DNA from: a virus
Lineage: Duplodnaviria > Caudoviricetes
IMG/VR virus record: IMGVR_UViG_3300021181_000004
DNA length: 64,000 bases
Strand: one strand, 5' to 3'
This document shows positions 55,648 to 56,422 of the stretch, piece by piece. The first letter of the stretch is position 1. The number at the start of each line of letters is the position of its first letter. The notes under the pieces were generated by a model, which did not search any database, was not told where the DNA came from, and worked only from the letters and a program-made list of their open reading frames with translations. The translations under genes and the position numbers were made by a program.

Positions 55648-55739
55648 TGGTACTCCCACTAGGATTCGAACCTAGATCATGCTCTAATCTGGAGCTTCCG
55701 GTTTATAAGGCCGTCGTGTTACCGTTACACCATGGGAGC
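55648..55739 (-). tRNA. tRNA-Ile(UAU) with a long variable arm
   Basis: GCTCCCA/TGGGAGT-A-CCA; loop CTTATAA; 3-bp anticodon-stem core; variable arm GCTC/GAGC. Confidence 0.8.
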
Positions 55740-55764
55740 AACTTGTCAAATTCTTGCTTAAATC

Positions 55765-55841
55765 TGGTACCCCAGAGTGGATTCGAACCACCACTGTACA
55801 GCTCTTAAGGCTGTCGTCTCCTGCCGTTGGACTACTGGGGC
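55765..55841 (-). tRNA. tRNA-Leu(UAA), short variable loop
   Basis: ACAGC-CTTAAGA-GCTGT; A73; CCA. Confidence 0.9.
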
Positions 55842-55846
55842 AATTC

Positions 55847-55936
55847 TGGAAGAGAGTGCGGGACTCGAACCCGCGTGCCCCATTTCTGGAAGCAATCGCT
55901 TTCGGGGCGATTTGCCATGCCTACTGACTACTCTCC
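55847..55936 (-). tRNA. tRNA-Ser(CGA), atypical (C33, U73)
   Basis: ATCGC-CCCGAAA-GCGAT; long variable arm; GGAGAGT/ACTCTCT-T-CCA. Confidence 0.75.
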
Positions 55937-55942
55937 AAATCT

Positions 55943-56037
55943 TGGCGGAATGCGGGAGAATCCAACTCCCAAGCCGCGTTTCTAGCGCAAGCGTCCCGTT
56001 TCAAGCGGGGTGGGCTTGTCCATTGCCCAAGCATTCC
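55943..56037 (-). tRNA. tRNA-Ser(UGA)
   Basis: CCCG-CTTGAAA-CGGG; long variable arm; G73; T-loop TTGGATT. Confidence 0.9.
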
Positions 56038-56042
56038 AAAAC

Positions 56043-56134
56043 TGGCGGTGAGTATGCGATTTGAACGCATGACACTCTTACGAGTGTGGTAGCTTTCCAA
56101 GCTACTGGATTAAACCAGGCTCTCCCAACTCACC
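56043..56134 (-). tRNA. tRNA-Ser(GGA)
   Basis: GTAGC-TTGGAAA-GCTAC; long variable arm; G73. Confidence 0.93.
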
Positions 56135-56141
56135 TTTAAAA

Positions 56142-56232
56142 TGGCGGAGATGGCAGGTGCTGACCCTGCGTGCCCTCTTCCGAGGAGCTTCGGTTTAGCA
56201 AACCGACGGATTTACCGTTCTCCCACATCTCC
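56142..56232 (-). tRNA. tRNA-Ser(GCU)
   Basis: TCGGT-TTGCTAA-ACCGA; long variable arm; G73; T-loop GTCAGCA. Confidence 0.9.
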
Positions 56233-56233
56233 C

Positions 56234-56271
56234 AACAAAACAAAAGCCACCAGATTTTGTCTGATGGCTTT
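56234..56271 (-). terminator. Attenuator terminator (3:4 hairpin) immediately 5' of tRNA-Ser(GCU)
   Basis: AAAGCCATCAGA-CAAAA-TCTGGTGGCTTT (12 bp, one G-U) followed by TGTTTTGTT. Confidence 0.88.
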
Positions 56272-56299
56272 CTAACTTTTGCGTACCTTCTAAAATGTC

Positions 56300-56371
56300 T
56301 TAGATGCACACGCCAGCGCCATCAGCTCCAGAGGAGCTACTAGATGACGAAGATAAATATATGCGTGTCAT
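56300..56371 (-). CDS. Leader peptide 1 (23 aa, MTRIYLSSSSSSSSGADGAGVCI)
   Basis: GCAGGA RBS; codons ATA TAT TTA TCT TCG TCA TCT AGT AGC TCC TCT. Confidence 0.88.
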   Translation of the reverse strand: MTRIYLSSSSSSSSGADGAGVCI

Positions 56372-56392
56372 GTTTTGTTTAATCCTGCTTGT

Positions 56393-56422
56393 ATAATACT
56401 ACGTAGTGGTAGAAATCGGTTA
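56393..56422 (-). promoter_or_regulatory. Phage promoter motif TAACCGATT-N15-TATTAT driving the Ser/Leu/Ile tRNA operon
   Basis: Same motif and spacing. Confidence 0.7.

Follow-up and report, generated by a model that had tools for sequence, protein, structure and literature searches.

The minus strand of the window, a 64,000-nucleotide stretch of an uncultured soil phage (G000; full record 75.5 kb), carries a cluster of six tRNA genes. Two of them, tRNA-Ser(GCU) at 56232-56142, which reads AGC and AGU, and tRNA-Ser(GGA) at 56134-56043, which reads UCC and UCU, were recovered both by tRNA search and by Rfam. The following tRNA-Ser(UGA) (56037-55943; reads UCA and UCG) was detected by ARAGORN only, with no Rfam match at E ≤ 0.1, and tRNA-Ser(CGA) (55936-55847; reads UCG) has in Rfam only a weak match to a tRNA-clan model. 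The cluster ends with a 77-nt tRNA with the anticodon UAA (55841-55765; reads UUA) and a 92-nt tRNA with the anticodon UAU and A73 (55739-55648; reads AUA), the latter conserved in the related phage G002. A long variable arm is present in the UAU tRNA and absent from the UAA tRNA. An earlier, sequence-only reading of this DNA had named all six anticodons correctly; the identities 'Leu' and 'Ile' that it gave to the last two tRNAs come solely from the anticodon. On the 3' side of the tRNAs lies an endonuclease-like gene (234 aa, 55604-54900), with no copy of the promoter motif described below before 53617. A thymine-hypermodification gene (PF18723) is also found in the neighbourhood.

The upstream gene (56544-56768) is placed on the opposite strand and is divergent from the leader and the tRNAs, so the promoter of the leader must fall within 56543-56372. 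This interval contains a promoter-like motif at 56422-56393, composed of the box TAACCGA (56422-56416), a 17-nt spacer and the -10 element TATTAT (56398-56393). A promoter had been proposed at this very location; it belongs to a recurrent phage motif, TANCCGA-N17-TAKWWT, with 14 copies in all, 12 of them on the minus strand, against 1.2 expected, and none of 100 shuffles reached 14. The transcription start is predicted downstream of this motif, followed by a short 5' untranslated stretch (56387-56372). There, an AGGA (56386-56383), probably the very 5' end of the transcript, precedes the ATG by 11 nt. The ribosome-binding site claimed earlier is no more than this AGGA, a weak Shine-Dalgarno match at an 11-nt spacing; the start signal of the candidate short ORF thus consists of the ATG at 56371 and a weak AGGA. 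In two related phages, G002 and G003, the untranslated stretch is missing altogether and the ATG stands 6 nt past the -10 element, a leaderless layout. Leaderless-like genes also occur in the window, with an ATG 5 nt past the -10 element at three other promoter copies.

The leader ORF (56371-56300) has 23 codons and a TAA stop (56302-56300), and its predicted product is MTRIYLSSSSSSSSGADGAGVCI. The regulatory codons occupy 56362-56330: ATA (56362-56360), TTA (56356-56354) and a run of eight consecutive serine codons (56353-56330; TCT TCG TCA TCT AGT AGC TCC TCT), in which all six Ser codons are represented. The sequence-only reading had described the ATG, the eight-serine run of all six codon types and the preceding ATA and TTA precisely as we find them, and every element that it listed lies at the minus-strand position it gave or at most one base away. 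This run is the longest Ser run in the six frames of the 75.5-kb record, and a run of eight appeared in none of 200 genomes simulated with a first-order Markov model. Codons 4-14 of the leader (ATA, TAT, TTA and the eight Ser) include codons for all six downstream tRNAs; comparison of ATA, TTA and the six Ser codons with the downstream anticodons bears out this earlier observation. Altogether, 10 of the 22 codons in the leader correspond to one of the six downstream tRNAs, compared to 10.3% of codons in the long ORFs of the phage (binomial p = 2.7e-5).

The leader RNA is predicted to form three mutually exclusive helices of near-equal energies, the first of which sits on the regulatory codons. 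Region 1 (56349-56333), covering Ser codons 2-7, is the 5' arm of hairpin 1:2, whose 3' arm is region 2 (56329-56317); the hairpin pairs 56349-56343 with 56323-56317 and 56338-56333 with 56329-56324, at -15.8 to -15.9 kcal/mol (z = -4.2). Region 2 is also the partner of region 3 in the antiterminator 2:3 (CUGAUGGC/GCCAUCAG; 56325-56318 with 56268-56261), a duplex of -15.1 kcal/mol. It encloses a middle hairpin (56316-56272; -12.4 kcal/mol) that contains the leader stop codon. Region 3 (56271-56260), a loop, region 4 (56254-56243) and a U tract (56242-56234) together make up an intrinsic terminator (56271-56234) with a 12-bp stem, including one G-U pair, and an energy of -16.1 kcal/mol for helix 3:4. 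Folding confirms the three exclusive helices and the 12-bp terminator of the earlier reading. The whole leader folds with z = -4.9, and the complementarity between the ORF and the 5' arm of the terminator exceeds that of dinucleotide shuffles (p = 0.0095).

A gap of 1 nt separates the end of the U tract (56234) from the first tRNA (56232), and no copy of the promoter motif lies between the terminator and that tRNA. With a divergent gene upstream and a U tract ending 1 nt before the first tRNA, the tRNAs would be made only by read-through of the terminator. The one RNA-library contig found across the terminator, 229 nt long and from a soil metatranscriptome, spans 56352-56124 and connects the leader and the terminator to tRNA-Ser(GCU) and the beginning of the tRNA after it. 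It cannot separate DNA carry-over from genome-wide transcription, as 48% of the words sampled from a 10-kb stretch of structural genes are present in this library too, and its contigs show no ends.

We consider it likely that this element is a ribosome-mediated (leader-peptide) transcription attenuator gating the phage tRNA operon. The attenuation logic of the trp/his/thr/pheST type, already recognized in the sequence-only reading, is supported by the in-silico tests applied here to helices, footprint folds and relatives. In this model, transcription from the phage-type promoter would yield a nascent RNA with the 23-codon ORF. If decoding is fast, the ribosome would move over region 2, or 1:2 would re-form behind it; region 3 would then pair with region 4 and RNA polymerase would stop at the U tract, directly before the first tRNA. 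Slow reading of any of the test codons would instead stall the ribosome on region 1 and leave region 2 free. Region 2 would capture region 3 as it emerges, the terminator could not nucleate and the tRNA cluster would be transcribed. Because the test codons are decoded by the very tRNAs that the operon encodes, such a circuit would constitute a negative-feedback loop on decoding capacity, and the tRNAs would probably be made only when ribosomes read the Ser codons of the leader slowly. Translation of the ORF, the transcription start and the kinetic competition between helices are predicted components of this model. The signal would be a shortage of functional or charged tRNA, arising from decay of host tRNAs, from a tRNA-targeting defence or from a mismatch between codon use and the host pool. 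Anticodon nucleases or MenT-type toxins might be the trigger; in the Schlafen papers checked, we found no Ser-specific rationale.

To follow the position of the ribosome, the transcript was cut before region 4 and folded with the ribosome footprint masked. When the A site is placed on codons 4-12 (ATA to AGC), region 3 is paired in 2:3 with a probability of 0.83-1.0, and this productive stall window includes one or more codons for each of the four Ser isoacceptors. On codons 15-19 the probability drops to 0.24-0.36 because the ribosome covers region 2, as it does in these folds throughout codons 15-23; a stall on the last two Ser codons would cover it too. The stop codon follows region 2 at a distance of 15 nt, and a ribosome positioned on it leaves region 2 just outside its 28-nt footprint. 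Unlike in trp, region 2 is then unmasked, so termination at this point would rely on 1:2 re-forming.

In the full-length leader at equilibrium the terminator always forms, even with a masked stalled ribosome. A purely thermodynamic switch was dropped for this reason, and the switch would have to be kinetic. The barrier from 1:2 to 2:3 is computed at only 7.9 kcal/mol, and as long as region 4 has not been made, 2:3 has a slight advantage; the untranslated default state may be leaky rather than off.

Two distant relatives carry the same arrangement. G002 (IMGVR_UViG_3300010339_000002) has a leader of 27 codons, MGYIVRISSSSSSSSGAGGGVRVYTTD, a terminator and five tRNAs; G003 (IMGVR_UViG_3300041809_001130) has a leader of 23 codons, MTRLHTISSSCSSCIGAAGGVGV, a terminator and a Ser cluster. 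Conservation of the leader upstream of orthologous Ser clusters, on which the earlier reading had staked its proposal, is thus found in both. The ORF, its frame, the Ser run and the placement of region 2 just past the run are common to the three phages, while the stems differ. The core of region 2/region 3 is GGCGGCG/CGCCGCC in G002, and the pair is GGCGGCUGGU/AUCAGCCGCC in G003. Regions 2, 3 and 4 change in sequence yet stay mutually complementary (p = 0.0095 in G000, 0.003 in G002 and 0.001 in G003, from shuffles), a comparison of three informative genomes only, between which the 2:3 helices are shifted by several columns. Whole-leader folds give z = -4.9, -3.4 and -3.5, respectively. Footprint folds of G002 and G003 follow the same pattern as in G000, and the middle hairpin has an equivalent in G003 with changed stem bases.

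A further relative, G004, keeps the terminator and has lost the ORF, which makes it a decayed leader. Its ORF-less terminator, the weak Shine-Dalgarno match and the constant prevalence of the terminator at equilibrium would suit a constitutive, partly leaky terminator, or a structure for processing or stability at the 5' end of the tRNA precursor, with an untranslated ORF whose codons are a by-product of folding; part of the Ser run does form the 1:2 stem and is hence constrained. We regard this explanation as improbable. A stem needs no in-frame run of eight serines behind an ATG, a run absent from all simulated genomes; three phages with differing stems have kept the ORF in its frame and region 2 in its place; and a second leader, described below, shows matching codons with another set of amino acids.

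The conserved ORF, promoter and terminator could also belong to a functional Ser-rich micro-protein with its own terminator, found next to tRNAs by accident. This we deem very improbable. The N- and C-terminal residues of the leader vary freely between relatives and the synonymous codon choice in the Ser run is kept: 20 nt of the run are identical in G000 and G002, synonymous positions included, with neighbouring proteins at most 54% identical. Moreover, the tRNAs have no other promoter, and in each genome the 5' arm of the terminator is complementary to the ORF.

Wider searches did not enlarge this set. In 50,697 phage records, BLAST with the locus found tRNA-level matches only, and no adjacent Ser cluster was found beside PF18723 homologues on long contigs. 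When metagenome and bacterial-genome collections were scanned for degenerate Ser runs, only the G002 contig came up again, all other hits being the antisense strand of acidic coding sequence. Neither the tRNA-Ser 5' end nor the middle hairpin led to further relatives when used as a query. One candidate obtained by a gapped pattern match, L129, was rejected as a chance match.

The codon content of the leader follows the tRNA content in five of six comparisons. In G000 and G003 the Leu-UAA tRNA and the TTA codon occur together; in G002 no Leu-UAA tRNA lies within 12.7 kb, and the leader contains neither TTA nor any other Leu codon. The match is imperfect in G003: for the two ATA codons of its leader we found no UAU tRNA, and for the two AGT codons the Ser-GCU gene no longer has its anticodon.

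A second leader of the window (leader B, 50541-50464, MIFRQHNTNQIGGHKHPANRQWRKR) is rich in Arg, Lys, His, Gln, Asn and Trp codons and precedes a cluster of Trp/His/Arg/Gln/Asn/Lys tRNAs in all four phages. The two leaders and the two clusters are reciprocally specific: 10 of 22 codons of the serine leader (A) match its own cluster and 1 of 22 matches cluster B, while for leader B the counts are 14 of 24 with cluster B and 0 of 24 with cluster A (Fisher p ~ 1e-4 in each direction). Homologues of leader B with terminators stand before tRNA-Trp in G002, G003 and G004, with antiterminator complementarity at p = 0.014, 0.0075 and 0.11, respectively. In the window itself, leader B has no convincing terminator and its region folds with z = -0.8. 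Three 35-nt tandem repeats are found at leader B in the window, where the relatives have the terminator.

Structurally, it makes no difference why a ribosome is slow on region 1, so translation of the ORF could simply report overall translation capacity or the coupling of transcription to translation, with no codon-specific sensing. The reciprocal, operon-specific codons of two leaders in one genome speak against such a general gauge, as does the co-presence or co-absence of TTA and the Leu-UAA tRNA across relatives; we give it little credence, somewhat less than the structural explanation above.

Serine starvation, or the general charging state of the host, deserves more attention, though we still hold it unlikely as the signal. 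Classical attenuators answer to charged tRNA, and starvation would also stall the ribosome here; the same attenuator would then act as a switch for timing or physiological state instead of feedback on tRNA supply. The endonuclease-like gene that follows the tRNAs without a promoter motif of its own agrees with this, in that control may reach beyond the tRNAs. However, six Ser codon types, together with the rare ATA and TTA matching two extra tRNAs, are needless for sensing one amino acid. Leader codons also track the tRNA set in the relatives and in the second operon, and an extra tRNA gives no relief from amino-acid starvation.

Similar arrangements occur outside this group. In unrelated phages, a Ser/His leader lies ahead of Ser/His tRNAs (L316), and Leu/Cys/Ser/Tyr leaders lie ahead of Leu/Cys/Ser/Tyr tRNAs (L257 and L338). 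A survey of 168 phage tRNA clusters with a whole-ORF binomial test, blunt and too insensitive for an estimate of prevalence, yielded 11 upstream ORFs at p < 0.01 versus 3 on the opposite strand; this excess of matching ORFs is suggestive. On balance we lean, by a narrower margin than for the attenuator itself, towards several unrelated phage lineages gating each tRNA operon by a leader written in the codons of its own tRNAs, a control that would be demand-driven, self-limiting and of isoacceptor resolution.

Leader-peptide attenuation has stood in the textbooks for 45 years. To our knowledge, it is known only for genes of amino-acid biosynthesis, transport and aminoacyl-tRNA synthetases, never for tRNA genes, and the regulation of phage tRNA expression has so far received little attention. 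Full-text literature searching found no published description of leader-peptide attenuation on tRNA genes; as far as such searching reaches, the novelty asserted in the sequence-only reading holds.

Like the enterobacterial trpL, hisL, leuL, thrL and pheL, the phage element combines a promoter with a short ORF bearing regulatory codons on region 1; the hisL leader, for instance, has 7 His codons. It likewise shares with trpL-type attenuators the exclusive helices 1:2, 2:3 and 3:4 of similar energy and a terminator directly before the regulated genes. The differences are that trpL-type elements regulate biosynthetic enzymes, whereas here the target would be tRNAs, whose production feeds back directly on the sensor; and that the element is located in a phage, its stop codon lies 15 nt past region 2 in an extra hairpin, and the leaders of its relatives are leaderless mRNAs. 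Several amino acids are already combined in one leader in ilvGMEDA and ilvBN (Ile, Val and Leu codons), as Ser, AUA and UUA are in the phage, and the pheST attenuator is a precedent for attenuation of a component of the translation apparatus. Compared to these three, the codon set of the phage covers every downstream isoacceptor, its resolution would be that of codons and not of amino acids, and no protein-coding target is needed.

T-box riboswitches share the goal, a choice between terminator and antiterminator made by the state of a specific tRNA, for genes of tRNA charging and supply. They bind uncharged tRNA directly and without a ribosome; in the phage, the codons are inside an ORF and a stem instead of a specifier loop. 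Neither the T-box model (RF00230) nor any other Rfam cis-regulator matches at E ≤ 0.1 in 44000-58000. The UGGN motifs of region 2 are not conserved in G002.

Mycobacterial leaderless poly-Cys short ORFs sense decoding speed and remodel the downstream RNA structure (bioRxiv 10.1101/834739). Their leaderless layout is the same as in G002 and G003. They free a ribosome-binding site, a translational control in cysteine metabolism, whereas the phage element ends in an intrinsic terminator before tRNA genes.

Roles discussed for phage tRNAs include compensation for codon usage and, against anticodon nucleases, service as decoys and replacements (PMC10264068, PMC11555353). If the proposed attenuation is true, the Ser leader, in which AUA and UUA join the full set of six Ser codons, is a clear case of a tRNA operon gated by its own codons. 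Phages would gauge decoding speed codon by codon and answer with the matching tRNAs, in a circuit that automatically makes up for host tRNAs lost through decay or tRNA-targeting defences. The low cost of large phage tRNA sets would then be explained, and the codons that a phage treats as limiting could be predicted. It would also offer a simple reporter of tRNA-targeting defence activity and, for synthetic biology, compact and portable sensors of isoacceptor availability.

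The window corresponds to bases 55-64054, read on the reverse strand, of a 75.5-kb IMG/VR virus record (G000), which has terminal repeats and whose DNA is present in a soil metagenome. The phage encodes a thymine-hypermodification gene (PF18723), and at least 16 tRNA genes lie on the minus strand of the window. One of them, a 75-nt tRNA with anticodon UCA (51501-51575, minus strand), is labelled SeC by ARAGORN; its length, and a score of 57 bits with the general tRNA model, point to an opal-suppressor type. Through the thymine-hypermodification gene the phage is related to two phage contigs in which ARAGORN finds tmRNA-like genes of the permuted type beside that gene (L003:2490-2816 and L006:2772-3085).

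All the elements of the Ser locus described by the sequence-only reading, namely promoter, ORF, terminator and six tRNA genes, are present. The upstream gene (56544-56768) is on the plus strand, divergent from the tRNA cluster, so that the promoter of the cluster must sit in the 170-nt spacer. The promoter motif, TAACCGA-N17-TATTAT (56422-56393, minus strand), has 14 copies in the window, where 1.2 would be expected, and 12 of these copies are on the minus strand. It is followed on the same strand by a 23-codon leader ORF (56371-56300), in which ATA, TAT and TTA precede eight consecutive Ser codons (codons 7-14: TCT TCG TCA TCT AGT AGC TCC TCT), and by a 12-bp terminator hairpin with a U tract, ending at 56234. 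tRNA-Ser(GCU) starts at 56232, and Ser(GGA), Ser(UGA), Ser(CGA), a UAA tRNA and a UAU tRNA come after it. No T-box was found at the locus by Rfam (44000-58000).

The UAA-anticodon tRNA (55765-55841, minus strand; 77 nt) differs from bacterial tRNA-Leu in having no long arm. The UAU-anticodon tRNA (55648-55739, minus strand) is of type II, its variable arm being long, and carries A73 and G1-U72; its anticodon stem is closed by a C-A mismatch. At the promoter, the likely source metagenome run shows an assembly graph break and a depth rise over 56390-56446, and a loose end in its graph links the promoter with different sequence; further copies of the promoter may exist at another site of the complete genome or in a co-occurring strain.

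The codon content of the leader departs from chance. No other Ser run in the record, in any frame, is as long, and none of 200 simulated genomes reaches this length. The six downstream tRNAs read 10 of the 22 leader codons, compared with 10.3% of the codons in the long ORFs of the phage (p = 2.7e-5). The leader also folds much more stably than shuffled sequences (z = -4.9). Its four regions can form three exclusive helices, 1:2, 2:3 (the antiterminator) and 3:4 (the terminator), with computed energies of -15.8, -15.1 and -16.1 kcal/mol, respectively.

We folded the transcript as it would stand before synthesis of region 4, with 28 nt masked as the ribosome. With the A site on codons 4-12, region 2 is free and region 3 is paired in 2:3 with a probability of 0.83-1.0; with the A site on codons 15-19, region 2 is covered and this value falls to 0.24-0.36. 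Each of the four Ser isoacceptors has at least one codon within the productive stall window, the final two Ser codons of the run being too near region 2 for good sensing. The signal may be serine starvation and not tRNA supply. At equilibrium the full leader forms the terminator in every case, as in trp, so the termination decision must be kinetic. The computed barrier from 1:2 to 2:3 is low (7.9 kcal/mol), and the untranslated state may therefore be leaky. Unlike in trp, the stop codon lies 15 nt past region 2, within an additional hairpin. In the full-length fold, a stem around the whole leader is closed by pairing between AACAAAACA (56371-56379, minus strand), the 9 nt up to and including the A of ATG, and its perfect complement in the U tract (56234-56242); this is particular to G000, the relatives being leaderless.

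Three relatives have related loci. A degenerate Ser-run scan of IMG/VR with an ARAGORN screen yielded G002 as its sole homologous locus; G003 and G004 were reached via an HNH gene that lies within the tRNA region. The G002 leader has ATA and eight Ser codons, then a strong terminator and tRNAs Ser-GCU, UAU (conserved between G000 and G002), Ser-GGA, UGA and CGA; G002 lacks a Leu-UAA tRNA within 12.7 kb, and its leader has no TTA codon. G003 has TTA, ATA and five Ser codons with two Cys codons interspersed, a GCCGCC/GGCGGC terminator stem, then Ser tRNAs and Leu-UAA. In both, the ATG lies 6 nt past the -10, which makes these leaders leaderless; three G000 genes have their ATG 5 nt past the same promoter motif. 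G000 and G002 have few proteins in common, with 44-54% identity, yet a 20-nt stretch of the Ser run is unchanged between them even at synonymous positions. In G000, G002 and G003 alike, region 2 directly follows the Ser run; the sequences of regions 2, 3 and 4 change from phage to phage and keep their mutual complementarity (p = 0.0095, 0.003 and 0.001, respectively, against dinucleotide shuffles).

There are two exceptions. The G003 leader carries ATA and AGT codons, though no UAU tRNA was found in that phage and its Ser-GCU gene has lost the anticodon: the orthologue (L225:870-955) lacks exactly the three anticodon bases, leaving a perfect CCGGTTT/AAACCGG palindrome, and is no longer called a tRNA by ARAGORN or Rfam. 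G004 keeps the terminator, Ser tRNAs and Leu-UAA and has lost the leader to a 12-nt remnant, its front replaced by a module of about 150 nt that is duplicated before the Trp cluster (L229:1230-1400 and L195:6200-6390). The module combines a promoter of the consensus form TTGACA-N17-TATTAT with about 100 nt of transcribed sequence that is conserved.

A second leader, B, a 25-codon ORF (MIFRQHNTNQIGGHKHPANRQWRKR; 50541-50464, minus strand; promoter motif 50619-50648), precedes the Trp/His/Asn/Arg/Lys/Gln cluster. Of the 24 codons after the leader B start, 14 match tRNAs of this cluster and 0 match tRNAs of the Ser cluster (p = 8e-6), a pattern that is reversed in the Ser leader. Homologues of leader B are present in G002, G003 and G004, in each case with a terminator that directly adjoins tRNA-Trp; the G004 homologue also has TTT codons, and its cluster includes a Phe tRNA. 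In the window, no clear terminator follows the ORF; three perfect 35-nt tandem repeats (50295-50401) adjoin the 5' end of tRNA-Trp, the site of the attenuator terminator in the relatives. Four nt past the -10 of the leader B promoter begins a 10-codon ORF that contains His and Arg codons. Were the element a constitutive terminator or a gene for a micro-protein, and not an attenuator, three features would go unexplained: the in-frame codon census, its reciprocal specificity between the operons, and the way region 2 co-varies with the terminator.

The same layout of promoter, short ORF and terminator, with amino acids mirroring the tRNAs, recurs in three unrelated IMG/VR phages from a tRNA-Ser scan: MFVSSSSHCSSSHS... 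before Ser/His tRNAs (L316, 5700-5900), and VKTLCLSSLSSYSSLLSGSGGS (L257, 7080-7250) and MNNLCSLSLSSYSLSLSAREAMG (L338, 5880-6030, minus strand) before Leu/Cys/Ser/Tyr tRNAs. In no single one is the antiterminator complementarity significant.

RNA-library contigs span the leader-to-tRNA junction of G000; the same library covers half of a structural-gene stretch, and these contigs are hence uninformative on expression. The codon census, the helices and the relatives with changed helices give the attenuator proposed for the Ser leader in silico support, and we consider it probable, from sequence and folding models, that the locus is a ribosome-mediated transcription attenuator of tRNA genes. The nearest published relatives, alongside classical attenuators, are the leaderless poly-Cys short ORFs of mycobacteria (bioRxiv 10.1101/834739). 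Full-text literature searches turned up no account of leader peptides attenuating tRNA genes. The Ser leader is a particularly clean case of a codon-matched leader before tRNA genes.
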